A stretch of DNA of 64,000 nt. Origin: Escherichia phage Mansfield. The notes below the pieces were generated by a model. It was given only the letters and a program-made list of their open reading frames with translations, was not told the origin of the DNA and searched no databases. Shown piece by piece: positions 7,035 to 64,000 of the stretch (position 1 is its first letter; every line of letters begins with the position of its first letter). Where the stretch lies: the sequence record MK903282.1; one strand, given 5' to 3'. A program made the position numbers and the translations under genes.

Positions 7035-7447
7035 TTGATAATCCCCTTGATGTCTGATTCTGCCATAAAGATTGGAGTGCCGCCGCCAGGAACAATCGAG
7101 CGCGTTACTTTGTCAAAAATATCGTTCTCTTCAACTTGAATACGATAAAATTTATTTTTGGATGAAGATGGGCACAATCCCATAAATTTGCCGATGCCGC
7201 GAACGCATTCATCTTCAAAGTATACTGTTTCACCTTGAATGGATTCGATGTTGTCTACTGGATAGACCTTGCGACCCAACAACCACTCATCTAAAGTCGC
7301 CTGCAAGACGTTTCGCGCATCTAAAATCCACGGGTCAATAGTAGCACCTTCGTATCGCGCAGCAGTAGCCTTTGCCAGTTCTTCATATTCGCATACGTTA
7401 ACGACTTCGCCGTTGTGCAAGACGACAAATACAATTGTTGTGCTCAT
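7031..7447 (-). CDS. hypothetical protein
   Basis: 138-aa ORF with AAAGGAG RBS; opposite strand between terminase and portal. Confidence 0.45.
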   Translation of the reverse strand: MSTTIVFVVLHNGEVVNVCEYEELAKATAARYEGATIDPWILDARNVLQATLDEWLLGRKVYPVDNIESIQGETVYFEDECVRGIGKFMGLCPSSSKNKFYRIQVEENDIFDKVTRSIVPGGGTPIFMAESDIKGIIK

Positions 7448-7542
7448 TTCAATCTCCTTTCGTTTGGTTAACTAAAATATAACTCAAAATGATACAAAAG
7501 CAAAATATTTTATGAACTATTTATGATCACCATACATATCAT

Positions 7543-7571
7543 TTGCTTACAAACACATGAATATTTATAAT
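7543..7571 (+). promoter_or_regulatory. sigma70-like promoter upstream of portal gene
   Basis: TTGCTT-N17-TATAAT read directly from sequence. Confidence 0.4.
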
Positions 7572-7609
7572 ATAGATTGATTCCCTTTCACTGTCAGGTG
7601 GCGTTAACA

Positions 7610-9986: not shown

Positions 9987-10838
9987 ATGGCTTTTAAAGC
10001 TTCGAAAAAACGTGAACGCCGCTCACCCGATAGAATCGGGCGCGGCAGTCCGATAATCCCGTCAAACGCTATTGCGATGGCCTACCGTCGTGAGATGAAA
10101 GGTCTTTGCTATGCGATGATTGATGACTATCAAGCAGGCATTTCAGAATGGCTTGATAAGAAGCAGGTGCAGAAGTTTTTTGCGCAAGACTCTGCTGATT
10201 CTACATTCCAGACTCTCATGAAACGGCTGCAGCTGAAATGGGCAAAGGCGTTTGCACGTGTTGGGTCGAAGATTGCCGCTGATTTTATCAAATCGGTCGA
10301 AAAGGGTGCCACTTCTGCTACATTCGCAAGCCTTAAGTCCGCAGGCATAGAAGCGCCAAAGGCCACATATAACAAATTCGTTGAGAACACTCTTAGAACA
10401 AGCGAGACGTTTAACACGACTCTAGTGACTAAGGTCGGCGAGGATATTCACAACAGAGTGTACGAAGCAGTCATGCTTTCGCTGACTTCGCCCGACCCAG
10501 CCCAGCAAGGAACGTCAGGCATTCAGGCGGCGTTGCGAAACGTAAAACACTTCTCTGCAAAGAGGGTCGACTTGATCGCTAAAGACCAGACAAGCAAATT
10601 GTATTGCGTTCTAAGCGATGAAAGGATGCGCCAGAATGGAGTCGAAGAATTTGAGTGGGCGCACTCAGGAGCAGGAAAGGAGCCGCGAATCTCTCATGAA
10701 CACGTCGACGGAATGAGATTCAAACTTGACGACAAGCGACTATGGGAAGTTGACGGCGAATTGAAGTTCAAAAAGGGTGACATCGGTCCTCCTGGATGGG
10801 CAATACACTGCAAGTGCAGAAAAATACCAATCATTTGA
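9987..10838 (+). CDS. head morphogenesis protein (Mu gpF / SPP1 gp7-like minor head protein)
   Basis: Position directly after portal; C-terminal conserved HEHVDG...GWAIHCKCRK region typical of MuF-like proteins; ATG at 9987 abuts portal stop. Confidence 0.65.
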   Translation: MAFKASKKRERRSPDRIGRGSPIIPSNAIAMAYRREMKGLCYAMIDDYQAGISEWLDKKQVQKFFAQDSADSTFQTLMKRLQLKWAKAFARVGSKIAADFIKSVEKGATSATFASLKSAGIEAPKATYNKFVENTLRTSETFNTTLVTKVGEDIHNRVYEAVMLSLTSPDPAQQGTSGIQAALRNVKHFSAKRVDLIAKDQTSKLYCVLSDERMRQNGVEEFEWAHSGAGKEPRISHEHVDGMRFKLDDKRLWEVDGELKFKKGDIGPPGWAIHCKCRKIPII

Positions 10839-10845
10839 GGTCATT

Positions 10846-11766
10846 ATGACGATACCAATCAGCACGTTTCCTCTATCTGGACAAACGCCAGTATTGCCTG
10901 CTGTATATGCTAACGGTTTGGCGATTGTTTCAGATTTTACATCCGACAAAAACCTGATTGTTCCATTGAGTCCGCCATTGGCGTCTGGATACAATTCAGT
11001 TGGTCAATTCTTTATGATCGGTAATGACGGCGATTCTACCAGCAAGCCGAATCTGACACTTTCAGTTCCCAAAATGAACATAACAGACGTGCAGACTGGT
11101 TTAACTGCGTCTACAATCACCATCGCTTTTGGCGAAGCAGTGATTATAGGCATGGAGTCTGGAGGGTCCAAGAATGCTGTCGCCGTTAAGGTAGTCAAAT
11201 CCAGCGGCAATCAATACACGTTACCAGCGGCAACGGCTTCTGTTCTCGGCGGCGTCAAAATAGGAAGTGGCATAAGCGTTGCAGGTGACGGTACAATTAG
11301 CGTGACTCAATACTCGTTACCGATTGCATCAGCATCAACCTTAGGTGGCGTAAAGGTAGGCACGACATTATCAATTGATGGTTCTGGAGTTCTTAATATT
11401 CCGTCAAGCACTGTGCAAAACGCAAGCAATAGTGTAAGCAATCCTCCGACAACTCTGGTGAATCTGGCAACATTAAACCTGCCTGCAGGGAAATGGCTTG
11501 TGACGGCAAGTCAGTTGACTGTCGCGACAGCAGGAATTCAAGCGAATACCGGAATTACAGTCAAATTGTCAACGAGCAATTCAGATATTACTGATGATGC
11601 ATTTACGATGTCAGCTGGCATTCGGGCTGCAGGTCGTTTCGGCGGCAATATTCCAACAAAGATAATTACTCTTGCCGCGCCTGGCAATGTGTATCTAAAC
11701 TATCAATGCACAGATGCGTTGACGTCTACCGTTTACGGACAGATCACCGCAATTAAGTTGAACTAA
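10846..11766 (+). CDS. virion structural protein with internal tandem repeats (fiber-like)
   Basis: ATG at 10846 with GAGGT RBS; repeats ATASVLGGVKIGSGISVAGDGTISVT and ASASTLGGVKVGTTLSIDGSGVLNI. Confidence 0.45.
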   Translation: MTIPISTFPLSGQTPVLPAVYANGLAIVSDFTSDKNLIVPLSPPLASGYNSVGQFFMIGNDGDSTSKPNLTLSVPKMNITDVQTGLTASTITIAFGEAVIIGMESGGSKNAVAVKVVKSSGNQYTLPAATASVLGGVKIGSGISVAGDGTISVTQYSLPIASASTLGGVKVGTTLSIDGSGVLNIPSSTVQNASNSVSNPPTTLVNLATLNLPAGKWLVTASQLTVATAGIQANTGITVKLSTSNSDITDDAFTMSAGIRAAGRFGGNIPTKIITLAAPGNVYLNYQCTDALTSTVYGQITAIKLN

Positions 11767-11776
11767 AGAGGAAGTT

Positions 11777-11914
11777 ATGCAAAAGATTATTCAGTCACGT
11801 TATGTTAAAGTGCGAAATATTAATTGCAACTCTCTGCTTTCTTGGAAATGGGCCGTTTACGATTCGATGCTGATTGGCGTTTTAGTTGCTGGAGTGCTTT
11901 TTAATATTCACTGA
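11777..11914 (+). CDS. small hydrophobic ORF (45 aa), hypothetical
   Basis: Unlisted ORF with AGAGGAAG RBS; C-terminal hydrophobic segment MLIGVLVAGVLF. Confidence 0.25.
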   Translation: MQKIIQSRYVKVRNINCNSLLSWKWAVYDSMLIGVLVAGVLFNIH

Positions 11915-11944
11915 ATCGCCTGGCAATGGATTGCCGCAGGATTT

Positions 11945-12235
11945 TACGCGTATAATGACGTATCATCCGTATCAAGTAAGTATTTGTTTTCAAAAGAATC
12001 TTACGTATGATACGGATGATACGCGTTGCCGCGATACTTTATAGGAATTCAAATAAATTAATTTAAAATTATATATCTAATTTAATTTTATTTTTTTATA
12101 AACTCTTATATATGAAAAGTATCCGTATCATCCGTATCATCCGTAGCACACCAGTGATAGCGCGGCTTATACACCGATACGGATAAAAATACGCCTCATT
12201 TTATCCGTATCATCCGTATCACACTAATTAAGGCG
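11945..12235. repeat. iteron-like repeat region: about 10 copies of 9-mer ATCCGTATC/GATACGGAT in both orientations flanking an AT-rich stretch
   Basis: Read directly: GTATCATCCGTATCA (11960-11974), inverted TGATACGGATGATACGCG (12008-12025), tandem ATCCGTATCATCCGTATCATCCGTAGC (12121-12147), GATACGGAT (about 12176-12184), TTATCCGTATCATCCGTATCACAC (12201-12224); AT-rich block 12040-12120. Confidence 0.6.
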
Positions 12236-12278
12236 CGGCTATATCGGTTGTTATACATATTCAAACCATAATTATTGT

Positions 12279-12307
12279 TTGCCTAAGTTTTTTTCATTAG
12301 ATATAAT
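12279..12307 (+). promoter_or_regulatory. sigma70-like promoter for scaffold/capsid operon
   Basis: TTGCCT-N17-TATAAT upstream of the scaffold gene. Confidence 0.4.
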
Positions 12308-12336
12308 ACACAATACTTATTTGAGGGTGGATGCGA

Positions 12337-13752
12337 ATGCAAACGGCACGCGAAATTGACAAAAATGGATTCTTGACGATTGTGGGTTGTCCCATTTCGT
12401 CATTTGGCATTTTTGATTATTCTGCAGGTCAGGTTGGACTTGATGGTGATCCGAATCGCATCGTAAAAGTTTATCGCCCAGAGTCAGCGGTGAAAGACCC
12501 CGAAGCGATAGATTCATTCAAAAATATCCCTTTCATCGACAATCACGAAATGCTTTCTGGATTCGAAGGTGATGAGGATAACACAGCACCCGAAGAGTAT
12601 GGCGTTGATGGAGTTCTAACTGGCAATGTTTATTATGACAAGCCATGGATGCGCGGCGACCTTAAAGTGTTTAGCCGTCGTCTGAAGAAGGCCATCGACT
12701 CTGGAAAGGTTGACTTGTCTTTGGGCTATGACTGTGAATTCATCATACAGTCTGGAGAGTTTGACGGGCAGCCGTATGAAGTGGTGCAGACAACTCTTCG
12801 CGGCAACCACATTGCTCTCGTGGACGTTGGTCGAGTACCAGGTGCACGGGTGCTGGATGGTCGTTGCTTTGACCATCTTTGTTTGACGACTGTAACACCA
12901 TCCAACGAGGATTTAGACATGCCAAAACCGTTAAAAGGTAAAGCGCGTGATAACGCTGTTGAACAGCTGAAATCACTGATCCCTGCGCTCGAACAATTTC
13001 TGAATGAAGAGAGCACCGAAGCTGCTCATCAGGACGAAGTTGAAGTGAAAGCAGAAGAGAAGGATTCAACCGAAGAACGTGAAGAAGTGATGGTTGATCC
13101 AGAAGTCAAAGCAGAAGCTGAAGAGACTCCAGAAGGTGAAGAGAAGTTTGAAGTTGAAACTGAATCTCACGCTGGCGGCGAGCTTCCGCAACTGATCAGC
13201 CAAATCGAAGCACTTATTGCAAAACTGAAAGGTGGCGCGGTAGGTGATGAAGAAGAAGTTGAAGCCGAAGTCAAAGACGAAGAAGAAGTTGAAGTCAAGG
13301 CTGAAGATGTATCACCTTGCGACAAAGCTGAAGATGTGGTTAGCGGCCTGCAAAACAGCAACGTAAAGGGGGCTTCGGTCGAAAAAGATGACAAACCGAC
13401 AAAAGCGGCGAAAGCGTCGCCAGGTCCAGCAAAAGGGGAACACTCAATGGCATCTGATTCAGCAGTTGCTGCTTTCTACGCTGATTCTGCTCGTAAGAAT
13501 AGCCTCTACCAGCGCCTGTCTAAAGTTGTTGGTGCCTTTGATCATGCAACTATGGACTCCAAGTCCGTAGCGAAATATGGCGCTAAAAAGTTAGGCTTGA
13601 AGTGCGTTGATGGCGCTGAGTTTGACGTTGTGGATAACTATCTGCGCGGCGTTGAACACGGTCAAAAACAGCGTGTAGTCGCAAAACAAAAGGCCGCTGC
13701 GGATTCTGCAGCAACTGACGAAGCATTTGAAGCTTGGTTGAAAGGGGAATAA
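12337..13752 (+). CDS. capsid scaffolding protein (acidic, coiled-coil; N-terminal globular domain of unknown function, possibly protease-like)
   Basis: Glu/Val/Lys-rich low-complexity middle (EVEVKAEEKD..., DEEEVEAEVKDEEEVEVKAED), located between head morphogenesis gene and capsid gene; ATG 12337 better spaced from GAGGGTGG than 12331. Confidence 0.5.
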   Translation: MQTAREIDKNGFLTIVGCPISSFGIFDYSAGQVGLDGDPNRIVKVYRPESAVKDPEAIDSFKNIPFIDNHEMLSGFEGDEDNTAPEEYGVDGVLTGNVYYDKPWMRGDLKVFSRRLKKAIDSGKVDLSLGYDCEFIIQSGEFDGQPYEVVQTTLRGNHIALVDVGRVPGARVLDGRCFDHLCLTTVTPSNEDLDMPKPLKGKARDNAVEQLKSLIPALEQFLNEESTEAAHQDEVEVKAEEKDSTEEREEVMVDPEVKAEAEETPEGEEKFEVETESHAGGELPQLISQIEALIAKLKGGAVGDEEEVEAEVKDEEEVEVKAEDVSPCDKAEDVVSGLQNSNVKGASVEKDDKPTKAAKASPGPAKGEHSMASDSAVAAFYADSARKNSLYQRLSKVVGAFDHATMDSKSVAKYGAKKLGLKCVDGAEFDVVDNYLRGVEHGQKQRVVAKQKAAADSAATDEAFEAWLKGE

Positions 13753-49102: not shown

Positions 49103-49948
49103 TTATTCCGCTTGATCACCGTCTTCGGCATCTTCGTTGGATTCAACATCGACAAACTCGATGTGACCCATCTCTTCCAGCTTGCTCAGGTAGGAGCGAA
49201 CTGAAGCGCCAAACAGTTGATCTTTAACTTTTTCGCCCAGCTCATCGATAGACTGTGCCACGCCAACTTCGCCTTCTTTGATCGCCGCCAGAACGCGTCC
49301 ACGGGTGGAATGCTCTTGCGGCTGACTCAGGCCATTGCCAGTGTAGATGAAGTGAGTAGCTTTTGCACGACGCTGACCATTGGCCTTTTTGGCAGCCTTA
49401 CGTTCTGCGATGGCTTTGCGACGTTCTTCAGCTTCTTGCTTACGCTGTTCTTTCTGCTGTTCTGCAGCTTCTTTCGCCGCAATCTTAGCAGCTTCACGCT
49501 CTGCCTTGCGTTTCGCTTTGGCTTCTTCTTTGGCCTTCTCTTTTTCGGCCTTCGCTGCAGCACGGGCTTGATCACGCTCTGCTTTCTTAGCAGCAGCTTG
49601 TTCAGCTTTCAGGCGCTTGGCTTCTTCTTTAGCCTTTGCCTTTTCGATTTCTTTCGCTGCTTTAGCGGCTTCACGCTCTGCTTTCTTAGCAGCAGCCTTT
49701 TCTGCACGCTCTTTGGCCTTCTTGGCTGCTTCTTCAGCACGCTTCTGAGCCTTCTCATCAGCAGCCTGCTTGCGTTTCAGGGCAGCTTCTTCACGCTTGG
49801 CTTGTTTTTCCTGCTCACGCTTCTGGCGTTTTTCTTCGGCTTCTTTCTTTTTAGCCAGACGTTTTTCTTCAGCCACGCGACGACGTTCTGCTGCAGCTGC
49901 TTGTTTTTCTTCTTTAGATAATACTTTGATTGCTTCGGCCATGTTCAC
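49103..49948 (-). CDS. charged single-alpha-helix (ER/K-rich) protein with C-terminal globular domain
   Basis: 281 aa; about 200 residues of near-pure K/A/E/R/Q, then a globular segment and acidic tail. Confidence 0.6.
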   Translation of the reverse strand: MNMAEAIKVLSKEEKQAAAAERRRVAEEKRLAKKKEAEEKRQKREQEKQAKREEAALKRKQAADEKAQKRAEEAAKKAKERAEKAAAKKAEREAAKAAKEIEKAKAKEEAKRLKAEQAAAKKAERDQARAAAKAEKEKAKEEAKAKRKAEREAAKIAAKEAAEQQKEQRKQEAEERRKAIAERKAAKKANGQRRAKATHFIYTGNGLSQPQEHSTRGRVLAAIKEGEVGVAQSIDELGEKVKDQLFGASVRSYLSKLEEMGHIEFVDVESNEDAEDGDQAE

Positions 49949-51772: not shown

Positions 51773-52855
51773 ATGGCTAGTTTAAGAGAAGAAGCAAAAA
51801 TAATCGAAGAGTTTTTGACAGAACTCCAAAGAGGCATTCCAGAAGATGAACGCGTCATGACCGTGTTTGCGCCTGAAGCAACGGTGCAGACCGACGAGCG
51901 CGGCAAAAAGATTAACAGCAGCTTCTGGCCTAAGCCTTGGAAGCTTGGCAAGCCGCTGATGCAACATCAGAACGGTTACGCCTGCATAAGTTCAATGCGT
52001 AAGTCTCCCAACCCAAAGACAGGCGAGATGCGATACTGGCGCACGGAATCGGCTTTCGGTCATGGCATGGCGATGATGGTCGACGACATCGGTCACGGTA
52101 AAGGGTCCAAAGGCGATTTAGATTTAGAGTTCTTTTTCGAGAGTCTGAAGCCAACCGTCATTGTTGAGACTTCACCGAACAACCACCAGCTGTGGTATTT
52201 CTTTAAAGACCCGATTGACCATCTTATCCAGTTCAAAGCATTCCTTGGGTCTTTCGTAAACATGGTACTCAAGAAGGGCGGCGACAACACGATTAAAGAC
52301 GTGACGCGCGTGGGCCGTGTTCCTGGTTGCATCAACAACAAGCGTGTGACTCACGACGGCCCTTACAAATATGTCGATGAGAACGGCGACCCGTTCCGCT
52401 GCCGACTTGTCCATGCAGACTATTCTTTGCGATACACAATCGAAGAGATTTGCCAAGCCTTCGGTTTCCACGTCGTTATGCCGCAAAAGCGTGAAATTCA
52501 AATCGACGTTGACGAATACAAATATGATGCTGTTTGGTATAAAATAGCCCAGCAAATCCTTGCTCGCAATAAGATGGGTGAAGGGTCCGATGGCGATGTT
52601 GTTGAAAACATGTCAGGTAAATGCCGCATCATCTGCCCTTGGGGTGAAGAGCACACCAACGGCGACCCATATGGCGCTTACTTTCGCGGCCCAATCCCTG
52701 GCGCTGAACATGAATTCGTTTTCGGTTGCGCTCACGACTGTCACCGGAAAGGTGAAGGTAAGAAAGGCTGGACAGCTTTTGTTGAAGCAGTAGTCATGCC
52801 TTATATTGAGAATCAACTTGATATGATAAATCGTCGCGCAGGTGGCATAAAATAG
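51773..52855 (+). CDS. primase-polymerase (archaeo-eukaryotic primase-type Prim-Pol) with C-terminal Cys/His cluster
   Basis: AEP-like motifs MMVDDIGH, NHQLWYFF, RVGRVPGCINNK; C-terminal CRIICPWGEEH...CAHDCH zinc-binding-like cluster. Confidence 0.55.
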   Translation: MASLREEAKIIEEFLTELQRGIPEDERVMTVFAPEATVQTDERGKKINSSFWPKPWKLGKPLMQHQNGYACISSMRKSPNPKTGEMRYWRTESAFGHGMAMMVDDIGHGKGSKGDLDLEFFFESLKPTVIVETSPNNHQLWYFFKDPIDHLIQFKAFLGSFVNMVLKKGGDNTIKDVTRVGRVPGCINNKRVTHDGPYKYVDENGDPFRCRLVHADYSLRYTIEEICQAFGFHVVMPQKREIQIDVDEYKYDAVWYKIAQQILARNKMGEGSDGDVVENMSGKCRIICPWGEEHTNGDPYGAYFRGPIPGAEHEFVFGCAHDCHRKGEGKKGWTAFVEAVVMPYIENQLDMINRRAGGIK

Positions 52856-54164: not shown

Positions 54165-55835
54165 ATGTCAATTGAACATGACAATCTTCCAGAGGATACA
54201 GGTGATGAATTTGGTGCAATCTTTGACGAAATTCAAGACGCTGGTGTTTCAGAAGAAATGCAAGCGGCAGAGCAGCAAGGCACCAGAGCTAAAATCAGCC
54301 TACAGCACAAGGCTGTTGAGAAAGATGCAGAGCGCATGGAATGCTACGGTGAAGAAGACTTGGTTGAAAGGGCACGTTTGCTCGCCTCACTTCAGGTAAT
54401 CAAGTTCCCTCACTACAAACCGACGAAAGATGATTTTGTTCTTCAGGCGGACCGGACGAGTGACATGAACCGTTATGCGGTTTTCGACGCGTTGTTTGAT
54501 AAGGGAAGTGGCGTTGTTCCATTCCCTCACAAAGATACTTTTCGTGGACGCTTAGTCGACCATCGCGGCGAAACTTTCACCGACCGGACGTTGGAAGTTA
54601 CAGAGATAGTTGCCGCTGTCGATGCAGCAGGACTGTCCAACCCAAACTCACGTCAGGTCGCTCAATCCTATAAGGAATGGGCCATGCGTTATCAGCGCGA
54701 CGACCTGATGGACTTCTTCTACAAGAAGCTGCCTGAATGGGACGGTACTGCGCGCATTGAGAAATACCTTATCGAGCTATTCCGACCGTTCGATACAGAG
54801 TTAAACCGACAAATCGGTGTGTATTTTTGGCTATCGCTCTATAACCGCCTGACCAACCCTGGCTGTCAAGCGCCAATCTCCATCGCGCTCATCGGCGGCC
54901 AGAACGCAGGGAAGAGTTATTTTAGCAAGCTGCTTTGCGAAGCTATTATGAACGACCGCCACGCAACACCGATTCCGTTGAACTTGGCCGCGCAGAACTT
55001 CAACCCGTTCTTGCGAGCTATTACGGGTCGCTCAATTATCGCGAACGTTGGCGAGATGACAGGCTTTAAAAAGGCTGACATCGAAAACATGAAAGCATTC
55101 CTGACTAAGACGGAAGATGACCTGGACTTCAAATTTGAGGACACGCAGGTTAAACCACGCCAGTGGATTGCTATCATGGACGGCAACGAATACGCAGGCA
55201 TGCAGCGTGACGACACGGGCAACCGTCGTGTATACCCTATATTTGTTGGCCAACTCGCTGACAAGGACGGGCAACCGAACTGGTCTAAAGACTTCCAAGC
55301 TGACCTTTCCACTTTGAAAGAAGACGTTTGGCAGCTGATGGCTGAGTGCGCTGCTTGGATGGAGAAGCACGGCGAAGCAGGTTACAATGCCTTTGTTGGT
55401 GAAACGTCTCGCATGCTTACTGAGTTCAGTAAGAACGAAATGGAACGCGCTCGCGGCGTTATCCGTGATGAGATGGTCGACAACGACCTTGTTGAAGTCG
55501 TCATCACCGCGCCTTATGACCGACATCACAGCGGACGCTGGCACATCACCAGTGGTGCAATCGCTATGGGATTCAGAGCTAAGTGCGGCAAGTCGCCTTT
55601 CTCACGTACCCTTGCGCCGCACATGTCGAAGCTTGGATTTGAGCCTGCGACCTATCGCAACCAGCGCGGTTACTTTACGCCGCTGATTAAGAATGAAGCA
55701 GGGGAATACATTTCTGACCTGATGACTATTTTGGCGTATCTTATCCGCGACGAATCTGACCCTGAAGATATTGAATTCTTGAAGAAGGTTATTGAGCGCA
55801 AACGTTCTTTAGGAAGAGATAAGGATGAATTCTGA
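54165..55835 (+). CDS. VirE-like P-loop NTPase (primase-associated SF3 helicase-like protein)
   Basis: 556 aa; Walker A IALIGGQNAGKSYF, Walker B-like QWIAIMDGNE; architecture typical of phage/plasmid VirE/primase C-terminal domain proteins. Confidence 0.6.
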   Translation: MSIEHDNLPEDTGDEFGAIFDEIQDAGVSEEMQAAEQQGTRAKISLQHKAVEKDAERMECYGEEDLVERARLLASLQVIKFPHYKPTKDDFVLQADRTSDMNRYAVFDALFDKGSGVVPFPHKDTFRGRLVDHRGETFTDRTLEVTEIVAAVDAAGLSNPNSRQVAQSYKEWAMRYQRDDLMDFFYKKLPEWDGTARIEKYLIELFRPFDTELNRQIGVYFWLSLYNRLTNPGCQAPISIALIGGQNAGKSYFSKLLCEAIMNDRHATPIPLNLAAQNFNPFLRAITGRSIIANVGEMTGFKKADIENMKAFLTKTEDDLDFKFEDTQVKPRQWIAIMDGNEYAGMQRDDTGNRRVYPIFVGQLADKDGQPNWSKDFQADLSTLKEDVWQLMAECAAWMEKHGEAGYNAFVGETSRMLTEFSKNEMERARGVIRDEMVDNDLVEVVITAPYDRHHSGRWHITSGAIAMGFRAKCGKSPFSRTLAPHMSKLGFEPATYRNQRGYFTPLIKNEAGEYISDLMTILAYLIRDESDPEDIEFLKKVIERKRSLGRDKDEF

Positions 55836-59058: not shown

Positions 59059-59376
59059 ATGATTTACTTAGGCATTGACCAGGAACAAGACGAGCGGTTA
59101 GGAAGCGTGTTAAACGTAGACTTAAACACAGCTGTACACATCAGGCCTTGGCCAGAGGCGCATCCCGACGTAGTTGTACCCGTTGCGCCTTGGACGCGTT
59201 ACGTTGCCATTGACAATGATGGCCTTGTCCATTGCTACTCAGAAAAGCCGACATACTTCGAAAAGTATCACCAATGGCTTATGACTGGTTGGGCAAAGGT
59301 GCGATGCTGCGGCGAAGTCGGTCTGGAAGGCTGGAGCTTCGAGGCTAGTGAATCGTGTGTCGAGGTGCAATTATGA
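59059..59376 (+). CDS. hypothetical protein
   Basis: 105-aa ORF with GAGGTG RBS. Confidence 0.45.
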   Translation: MIYLGIDQEQDERLGSVLNVDLNTAVHIRPWPEAHPDVVVPVAPWTRYVAIDNDGLVHCYSEKPTYFEKYHQWLMTGWAKVRCCGEVGLEGWSFEASESCVEVQL

Positions 59377-63561: not shown

Positions 63562-63800
63562 TCCGTGTGGTGTGAGTCTTTATTATTGGATAAAGCGATT
63601 GATTTGTGTAAATCTATTAGAGGATTGTGGGAAGTGAGTATTGTGACGTGAATTTTGCGTCTTGAATATGTGTGCGAATCTGGAAGATTATCGTACTGTG
63701 GTGCTGTTGGATTGGAGAGGGAATCACTAGGAATTGGAGCGTGTACCGTGGTGTGTGGTCCTGTGTGGTGCGCCGTCTATGGGATTGCCGCTTGAAATTA
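63562..63800. other. noncoding block with strong G+T strand skew
   Basis: About 240 nt with almost no C-rich stretch on the plus strand; repeated GTGTGG / GGATTG / GGAATTGG words; no ORF. Confidence 0.5.
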
Positions 63801-63839
63801 AAAAGGAGATATAGTTAGCTGGCTAACCTTACGCATAGA

Positions 63840-63980
63840 ATTTAAACGTATAATGACGTAAGATTTGGACCTATCCGTAGTTCACTCCACACACTTCTAT
63901 GGTGCGCCGCGACTGGGTTCAGTGGTACATCTTACGGATGATACGGATGATACGCGTCGCCGCTATACTTTATACAACTT
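63840..63980. repeat. second copy of the repeat module found at 11945-12050
   Basis: ACGTATAATGACGTA (63844-63858) and CTTACGGATGATACGGATGATACGCGTCGCCGCTATACTTTATA (63930-63973) match the same two blocks at 11946-11960 and 12000-12043 with few mismatches. Confidence 0.55.
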
Positions 63981-64000
63981 TGAAAAAAACAATTAACTCC

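Follow-up and report, generated by a model that had tools for sequence, protein, structure and literature searches.

SaPI replicons carry a primase gene, pri, followed by rep, and their origin lies directly downstream of rep (PMC9371898). This origin consists of 6-12 penta- or hexanucleotide iterons and an AT-rich centre, which is flanked on either side by two or more iterons running in opposite directions, and the iterons are read by the C-terminal winged-helix domain of Rep (PMC9371898). Phage SPP1 has two origins, oriL and oriR, with common repeats and an AT-rich unwinding element that are bound by one protein; oriL lies at the initiator gene, and oriR breaks up the morphogenesis genes in a segment that separates gene 7 (MuF-like) from gene 11 (scaffold); a further proposed role of oriR is to stall forks and set off the change to concatemer synthesis (PMC6316719). 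The PB1-like phages, Pbunavirus and Wifcevirus with their relatives, still lack a defined replication origin, although Pbunaviruses rank with the most widely used Pseudomonas phages in therapy and are being rebuilt synthetically. In satellite phage P4, whose initiator is an SF3-type primase-helicase, the same short iterons also occur at two distant loci, ori and crr. The latter acts in cis as an auxiliary element, 4.5 kb away from ori, and its architecture and sequence are unrelated to the locus described below. Repeats may likewise mark packaging sites: in the pac sites of P1 and SPP1 (pacL/pacC/pacR) they flank the cut, and repeat arrays adjoin the terminal repeat of T7.

The window that we analysed, a stretch of 64,000 nucleotides, belongs to a Wifcevirus genome, that of a PB1-like myovirus of E. 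coli. Its segment 11000-13500 is 94-98% identical to about 28 E. coli and Shigella Wifcevirus myoviruses (FEC19, WFH, kaset, ECML-117 and others), and its more distant kin are Pbunavirus (PB1-like), Serratia, Xanthomonas and Burkholderia phages. According to annotated relatives, the genes run in the order terL, two small reverse genes, portal, MuF-like head morphogenesis and head-fibre (10777-11766), then an ORF of 45 codons, a gap, the head protease/scaffold gene (12331-13752), scaffold and the major capsid protein. The initial annotation treated the whole of 11767-12330 as a 560-bp noncoding gap. The small ORF, which is annotated in relatives, falls within that interval, and the strictly noncoding part shrinks to 416 bp (11915-12330). 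This part contains the module that we refer to as locus 1, whose components are listed in the table together with the other features discussed.

Features of the protease-proximal module, its paralog and the putative replication genes (window coordinates)
Feature	Position	Strand	Basis
Small conserved ORF, 45 aa, between head-fibre gene and module; outside the element	11777..11914	+	annotated in relatives
Second left-side GC box	11930-11940		reading of sequences
Iteron array A1, three 9-bp units CGCGTATAA / TGACGTATC / ATCCGTATC	11947..11973	+	repeat count; 7-genome comparison
Iteron array A2, three inverted units; left arm of 22-nt inverted repeat	12000..12026	-	repeat and inverted-repeat search
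GC box TTGCCGCGATAC, inverted GCGGC type	12026..12037	-	reading of sequences
AT-rich centre, 91% A+T, candidate DNA-unwinding element	12039..12118	.	A+T of 80-nt windows
Iteron array A3, ATCCGTATC / ATCCGTATC / ATCCGTAGC; right arm of inverted repeat	12121..12147	+	repeat search
GC box GATAGCGCGGCTTAT	12156..12170	+	sequence; 7-mer scan
Iteron array A4, GATACGGAT and degenerate unit AAAAATACG	12176..12193	-	repeat search
Iteron array A5, ATCCGTATC twice	12203..12220	+	repeat search
GC box AAGGCGCGGCTATA	12230..12243	+	sequence; 7-mer scan
Sigma70-type promoter of protease-scaffold-capsid operon, TTGCCT-17-TATAAT	12279..12307	+	best sigma70-like match in region
RepB-type primase (candidate "pri" partner)	51773..52855	+	domain search
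Candidate initiator: VapE-like SF3 helicase, full-length structural homolog of SaPI1 Rep1	54165..55835	+	Pfam, phmmer, AF2/Foldseek
Left half of paralogous module (locus 2), GATACGGAT repeats and GC boxes	63780..64000	+	self-BLAST; alignment with WFH

Locus 1 had been described as about ten direct and inverted copies of a 9-mer, ATCCGTATC or its complement GATACGGAT, on both sides of an AT-rich 80-bp block at 12040-12120, and both parts of this description held. The 9-mer has nine exact copies in the 64 kb, where shuffled sequences gave an expectation of 0.22; seven of the nine lie inside 11965-12220, and an eighth copy, at 12139, differs by one mismatch. When degenerate units with a CGTAT(C) core are counted, the module comprises about 13 units (about five of them degenerate) in five arrays of two or three, each with a 9-bp period, placed round the AT-rich centre. 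This centre is the most A+T-rich of all 80-nt stretches in the window, the runner-up reaching 80%, and it includes AATTAATTTAAA, a segment common to the AT block at the genome terminus. The inner arrays A2 and A3 enclose the AT block as a 22-nt inverted repeat (12002-12023 and 12124-12145), whose arms are 95% complementary and separated by 100 nt. Boxes of the GCGGC type face away from the centre on both sides, at both loci and in other genera. Elsewhere in the 64-kb window we found no further iteron-like cluster, the next best being an 8-mer with four copies inside coding sequence.

Among Wifcevirus genomes, the module has changed less than the coding DNA next to it. The window differs from the WFC/Bas100 clade at only about 5 of 330 noncoding positions, versus 95% identity over the surrounding 2.5 kb. 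Array A1 is nearly invariant across seven Wifcevirus genomes, with 3 of 27 positions differing in the WFC/Bas100 clade. A private G-to-T change at position 12007 affects the left-arm array A2 of the window (TACGTATG); the six further Wifcevirus genomes in the comparison all carry TACGGATG at this place, which makes three perfect units.

These features agree with a SaPI origin in several respects. The iterons of locus 1 have a hexamer core, they flank an AT-rich centre in opposite orientation, two or more to a side, and their number (seven exact, one near-exact and about five degenerate units) is similar to the 6-12 iterons of the SaPI plan. The phage module differs in its strict 9-bp period within arrays of two to three units and in its extra GCGGC boxes, a family-wide component that the SaPI model leaves unexplained. 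A plasmid- or chromosome-type iteron origin, taken as 17-22-bp iterons with DnaA boxes and an IHF site, is a poorer likeness: the interval 11900-12330 contains neither a strict DnaA box nor an IHF consensus, and GATC does not occur in it. One candidate DnaA box, TTATCCGTA, was dropped for its two mismatches. A TATAAT at 11951-11956 was also rejected as a promoter element; it stands 14 nt from TTGCCG and more plausibly belongs to a degenerate 9-mer unit. Rfam returned only sub-threshold, hairpin-like matches to the element (E 0.18-0.41), caused by the inverted repeats.

The window also encodes a candidate for the protein that would read these repeats. The product of the gene at 54165-55835 has a Pfam VapE-like domain and is matched by phmmer to SaPI1 Rep1 (PDB 7PDS, E 4e-11). 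An AF2 model of this protein (pLDDT 84) returned the same structure as its top Foldseek match (E 2.5e-16, about 480 columns, TM 0.62 on the target). In the predicted structure, residues ~436-504 follow the H-E-H-H-E-E order of a winged helix, and among 39 homologs this region has a mean pairwise identity of 24%, compared with 57% for the ATPase core. By sequence and model, the VapE-like protein is a nearly full-length homolog of SaPI1 Rep1 and a candidate initiator-helicase with a divergent C-terminal winged-helix-like domain. The replication genes among the scanned ORFs comprise this VapE/SF3 helicase, the RepB primase, a PIF1/Dda-like helicase and an SNF2 helicase; an SPP1 gp38/gp39/gp40-type set was absent from the ORFs scanned. 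The likeness to the SaPI/PICI pri-rep-ori system thus extends from the iterons to a homologous initiator with the same three-tier build and a winged-helix-like C-terminal domain, to a primase gene located upstream, and to a repeat specificity that differs by lineage. The hosts of the two replicons are unlike, a virulent 68-kb myovirus here and a satellite in the case of SaPI.

Self-comparison of the window revealed that 11998-12043 recurs at 63929-63974. The second occurrence belongs to the left half of another module, locus 2; this left half runs up to the final base of the window. Base 64000 directly precedes the left end of the direct terminal repeat (DTR), and the AT centre, the right arm and terS lie beyond the window. 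In WFH, the region upstream of terS can be aligned colinearly with locus 1 over about 350 bp, through the left arrays, the GC box, the AATTAATTTAAA AT block and the right arrays. Locus 1 is, on the evidence of these alignments, a colinear paralog of the region at the DTR left end, just upstream of terS. The records of WFH, Ro157lw and WFC (deposited DTRs of 3701, 3533 and 3784 bp, respectively) begin at an identical base inside the locus-2 AT block, between AATTAACTCC and ATTTTGAATTAATTT. Since the window ends one base before this DTR start, its source record was opened at the physical terminus; the Mansfield record was opened at a PhageTerm DTR boundary, the base at which the window also ends. 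The terS gene starts about 360 nt downstream of the terminus, and its product is homologous to the E217 small terminase (PDB 7UXE, E 1.6e-32).

Several minor features of this terminal region deserve mention. The terS gene (WFH gp001, WFH 361-834) lies inside the terminal repeat, about 9 kb from terL; it is labelled "hypothetical protein" in nearly all Wifcevirus records, and its start is placed 53 codons earlier in the WFH annotation than in those of WFC and Ro157lw. The right boundary of the DTR falls immediately before a conserved TGGTGCG(T/A)TTT in WFH (3701/3702) and Ro157lw as well as in Serratia phage MyoSmar, boundaries that had been predicted independently, and the WFC record ends 83 nt past this boundary. 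To the left of the terminus, Wifceviruses possess two unrelated versions of DNA, a WFH type and a Ro157lw/WFC type (the segments compared were extract coordinates 1317-1647 and 1359-1689 versus 7253-7583), and both versions retain several GATACG/CGTATC repeats.

The two-locus design recurs, by sequence comparison, in Myosmarvirus, Pbunavirus, BcepF1 and about eight uncultured lineages, each with a repeat word of its own that is common to both loci of that lineage. In MyoSmar, a 470-bp gap upstream of the head protease is paralogous to the DTR boundary region of the same phage and carries the repeat ACTTTTCGTTTTTT. In the Pbunaviruses Pa193 and JG024, the pre-protease gap of about 510 bp is colinear with their own terS-upstream region, the repeat being GGTAATTTG. 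BcepF1 has TTAGTTA/TAACTAA at both loci. For IMG/VR contigs we determined which 7-mer recurs most often within the 650 nt before the protease and looked for it in the region downstream of rep on the same contig. This top 7-mer was also clustered within a few hundred nucleotides (~0-250 nt) past the stop codon of the VapE-like rep, as in the cases of ATAGTTG (10 copies at locus 1 and 6 at locus 2), CCGCAAC (7 and 6), ATCCGAT (7 and 7), TAACTAA (9 and 7) and ACTTTCC (11 and 8). BLASTN detected paralogy between the two loci in six more IMG/VR contigs.

Because both loci follow the repeat word of each lineage, binding specificity must have diverged repeatedly with both sites tracking it. This recurrence with co-varying words, combined with near-invariance within Wifcevirus, argues that the element is functional, and the sequences point to both copies being read by one sequence-specific factor whose specificity has changed many times.

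The surroundings of the second copy bear on what that factor may be. In most lineages the rep stop codon is followed by an AT peak at +170 to +620 nt and by the terS start at +515 to +1090 nt, so that one copy lies directly downstream of rep, as the origin does in SaPI. Wifcevirus departs from this arrangement: locus 1 is about 42 kb from rep and locus 2 is 8 kb downstream of it, and neither copy adjoins the gene. Where rep and terS are separated, the module stays with rep in Carpasina-like phages and in contig c67962, and with terS in the Wifcevirus clade. Xanthomonas phage Carpasina itself has a single module with CGCGGCGTAT repeats right after rep, 3.4 kb upstream of terS; its pre-protease gap holds a small ORF, a hairpin and a promoter and is free of repeats. 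Wifcevirus and Carpasina both have CGTAT-type repeats. The winged-helix regions of their Rep proteins are 19% identical, which is no closer than average, and TerS similarity does not track the common repeat type either. The protease-proximal copy is missing from some relatives (Carpasina and several contigs) and is thus dispensable.

Likeness to SPP1 lies in the placement of the two copies. Both here and in other genera, two distant loci have a matching organisation of repeats and unwinding element, and the second SPP1 origin occupies the head-gene slot between the MuF-like and scaffold genes, which is the position of locus 1. The machinery is unlike: the gp38 initiator of SPP1, which works with a DnaB-type helicase and a loader, is unrelated to SF3 Rep, the SPP1 repeats are direct, and pac is separate from both origins. 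The phage design differs from SaPI in turn by having two copies per genome, one of which includes the packaging start.

On balance, we favour the reading, derived from these sequence comparisons, that locus 1 is the second of two paralogous Rep-bound iteron origins. Only one copy is a genome end; therefore, the function common to both copies cannot be the making of a genome end. The simplest common function would, we are modestly inclined to think, be that of an origin to which a Rep-type initiator binds; the packaging cut would be an addition peculiar to the copy proximal to rep or terS. An iteron-type origin with an unwinding element had been suggested for locus 1 in the initial annotation, and much of that suggestion stands: the layout, an SF3 Rep accompanied by a RepB primase, a paralog that adjoins rep in relatives and the co-varying repeats all speak for it. 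Cumulative GC skew, proposed there as a check, did not bear it out, since there is no inflection at 12 kb and the skew follows the direction of transcription. Its turning points and those of AT skew, at ~7, ~34 and ~51 kb, all track transcription, and we regard skew as uninformative about an origin here. Also counting against an origin is that the centre of the paralog is a genome end or packaging start in three genera, and that the common repeats could be TerS sites. The distance of both Wifcevirus copies from rep, the loss of the protease-proximal copy in some relatives, the dissimilar Rep winged-helix regions of Wifcevirus and Carpasina and the GCGGC boxes outside the SaPI plan weigh on the same side.

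By analogy with SaPI, we infer Rep binding, melting and origin firing in the following form. The Rep1-like SF3 initiator-helicase would recognise the CGTATC-core repeats through its C-terminal winged helix, as homology suggests, and Rep assemblies would load on the oppositely oriented inner arrays A2 and A3. The 80-bp centre, with its 91% A+T, would then melt, the RepB-type primase would prime, and the phage PolIII-alpha-like polymerase would extend. The terS-adjacent copy, which is rep-adjacent in most relatives, would represent the rep-proximal origin that also bears the packaging start, in Wifcevirus the left end of the terminal repeat. Locus 1, between the MuF-like and head-fibre genes and the protease-scaffold-capsid operon, would be the counterpart of SPP1 oriR. 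It might act as a second firing origin, or as a Rep-bound site that stalls forks and aids the switch to concatemer-producing replication.

A closer coupling of the two processes is possible, if rather doubtful. The origin module may double as a packaging-initiation site, the first terminase cut being made inside the unwinding centre of the rep-proximal origin. That cut would create the DTR left end in Wifcevirus and Myosmarvirus and would start the headful series in Pbunavirus, so that replication initiation and genome-end formation would be physically linked; perhaps Rep-melted or newly primed DNA would be the substrate that lets the terminal repeat be duplicated. Locus 1, which has no cut motif, would then be an origin only.

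That the repeats are instead TerS recognition sites seems unlikely to us, even though much about the paralog invites this explanation. Locus 2 would be the true pac site or terminus and locus 1 a TerS-binding pac paralog without cleavage, which could serve, for example, in two-site synapsis, in TerS titration or as a rarely used second packaging start. Genome ends do map to the dyad centre of the paralog. Besides the Wifcevirus ends, the PhageTerm DTR boundary of MyoSmar lies at the homologous place, about 390 nt upstream of terS. In JG024, 36 of 161 long reads start at 59,376 +/- 5, which fits a restriction "pac fragment" (PMC10913387); this position is enclosed by the inverted GC-box arms of the module upstream of terS, and it is also the first base of the Pa193 record. 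Thus, three genera, including both DTR and headful packagers, put the packaging start inside the locus-2 centre. Pbunavirus termini deduced from assembly repeats (PASA16, DRL-P1) were uninformative. With the terS gene for a 7UXE homolog directly downstream, locus 2 has repeat arrays on both sides of a genome-end site, as do the P1 and SPP1 pac sites and, in the form of arrays adjoining its terminal repeat, T7. The E217 TerS homolog forms a decameric ring, and by our own estimate the 9-bp period would correspond to about one subunit per repeat. For T4, a "twin-ring pac synapsis" model has been put forward (PMC9611059).

The same evidence sits poorly with locus 1. All published ends and record termini (WFH, Ro157lw, WFC, Mansfield, MyoSmar, JG024, Pa193) are at the paralog and none is at locus 1, which has head-fibre and protease genes as neighbours and is not beside terS; minor ends may still occur there. 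Locus 1 has neither the Wifcevirus cut sequence (cut between ACTCC and ATTTT) nor the ~21 bp round the cut of Pbunavirus nor the locus-2 box GCGCCGCGACTGGGTT. The packaging site that had been offered as an alternative for this locus is true of its paralog, whose centre contains the ends; at locus 1, a published end and the conserved cut sequence are both missing. A conserved but uncut pac copy has no established function, and locus 1 is conserved in DTR and headful packagers alike. Moreover, E217 TerS did not bind DNA to any appreciable extent in vitro (PMC9611059). In Carpasina-like phages, finally, the module adjoins rep, whereas terS lies 3.1-3.5 kb away and has no repeats upstream.

The box GCGCCGCGACTGGGTT (63902-63917) lies about 90 nt to the left of the terminus. 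It is kept in MyoSmar and, as GCCGCGTGGGTT, in JG024, and it is absent from the protease-proximal copy. Its sequence resembles a non-sigma70 "CTGGG" promoter motif reported for phage 14-1, but it could instead be the true terminase recognition element.

Transcriptional control is a still less probable basis for the design than terminase binding. A phage or host factor on the arrays would switch strong late promoters of the sigma70 type, that of the protease-scaffold-capsid operon here and that of terS at locus 2. Near-consensus sigma70 promoters do lie downstream of both copies and read away from them. The one at locus 1, already pointed out in the initial annotation, is the best such site in the region and is a sequence homolog of promoter P014 of phage 14-1, mapped by ONT-cappable-seq (TSS 13257). 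The terS-proximal promoter corresponds to P041 of 14-1, likewise a mapped TSS, and another 14-1 promoter, P040, arises from the locus-2 tandem repeats. Earlier work had taken the AT block of PB1-like phages for a putative sigma70 promoter and had mentioned "AT-rich boxes" whose function was unclear (PMC3008698). Nevertheless, the repeats neither overlap nor abut promoter hexamers. At locus 1, 59 nt separate the end of the last 9-mer (12220) from the downstream -35 element, and at locus 2 the distance is about 150 nt. ONT-cappable-seq found no TSS between 9247 and 13257 in 14-1, and the locus-1 module is thus transcriptionally silent there, the only mapped TSS being that of the gene-proximal promoter. 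Arrays of this sort are missing from the other late operons (terL, portal, tail), Carpasina retains the promoter but not the module, and a 300-bp dyad module with a 91% AT core far exceeds what a promoter needs. The operator array that had been named as an alternative is accordingly weak.

P040 of 14-1 (sigma70-type, TSS 59399) is itself built from tandem GGTAATTTG repeats (JG024 extract 648-681) and yields a leader of about 500 nt before terS.

That locus 1 is a neutral or selfish duplication without function is hardly credible: the protease-proximal copy is indeed missing in some relatives, but at least four genera and several uncultured lineages keep it in the same place, its repeats have been re-matched to the other copy in every lineage, and in Wifcevirus it is better conserved than the coding DNA beside it.

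Rep-type iteron origins and dual phage origins are already known in kind. What the comparisons add is a candidate for such origins in a family of virulent myoviruses without a described origin, together with a duplicated, co-varying design across many lineages and a packaging start inside one of the copies. If locus 1 and its paralog are indeed Rep-bound origins, these phages would gain two specific candidate origins and a named initiator, along with a short recognition word in each lineage, and the conserved gap of about 500 bp that splits the head genes would be explained. The overlap of an origin with a packaging start would be unusual. Two origins may also have to do with the reportedly very short latent period of Wifcevirus, and genome designs for rebooting or minimising phages should then leave the two modules and the spacing between them intact.

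Two further compositional features of the window were recorded. The heptamer GCGCGGC (either strand) occurs 61 times in the 64 kb, compared with a mean of 17 (maximum 25) in order-3 Markov simulations. Its copies are scattered inside genes on both strands without common flanks, and two of them fall in the right half of the module (12160-12166 and 12233-12239). We rejected the heptamer as a phage-specific promoter akin to the "CTGGG" class of 14-1 on account of this scatter and of the absence of 14-1 TSSs at such boxes. The segment 49000-50000 has an extreme AT skew (-0.355), with a cluster of GAAGAAGC repeats inside the reverse-strand gene 49103-49948, which suggests that the product of this gene contains a low-complexity acidic segment.
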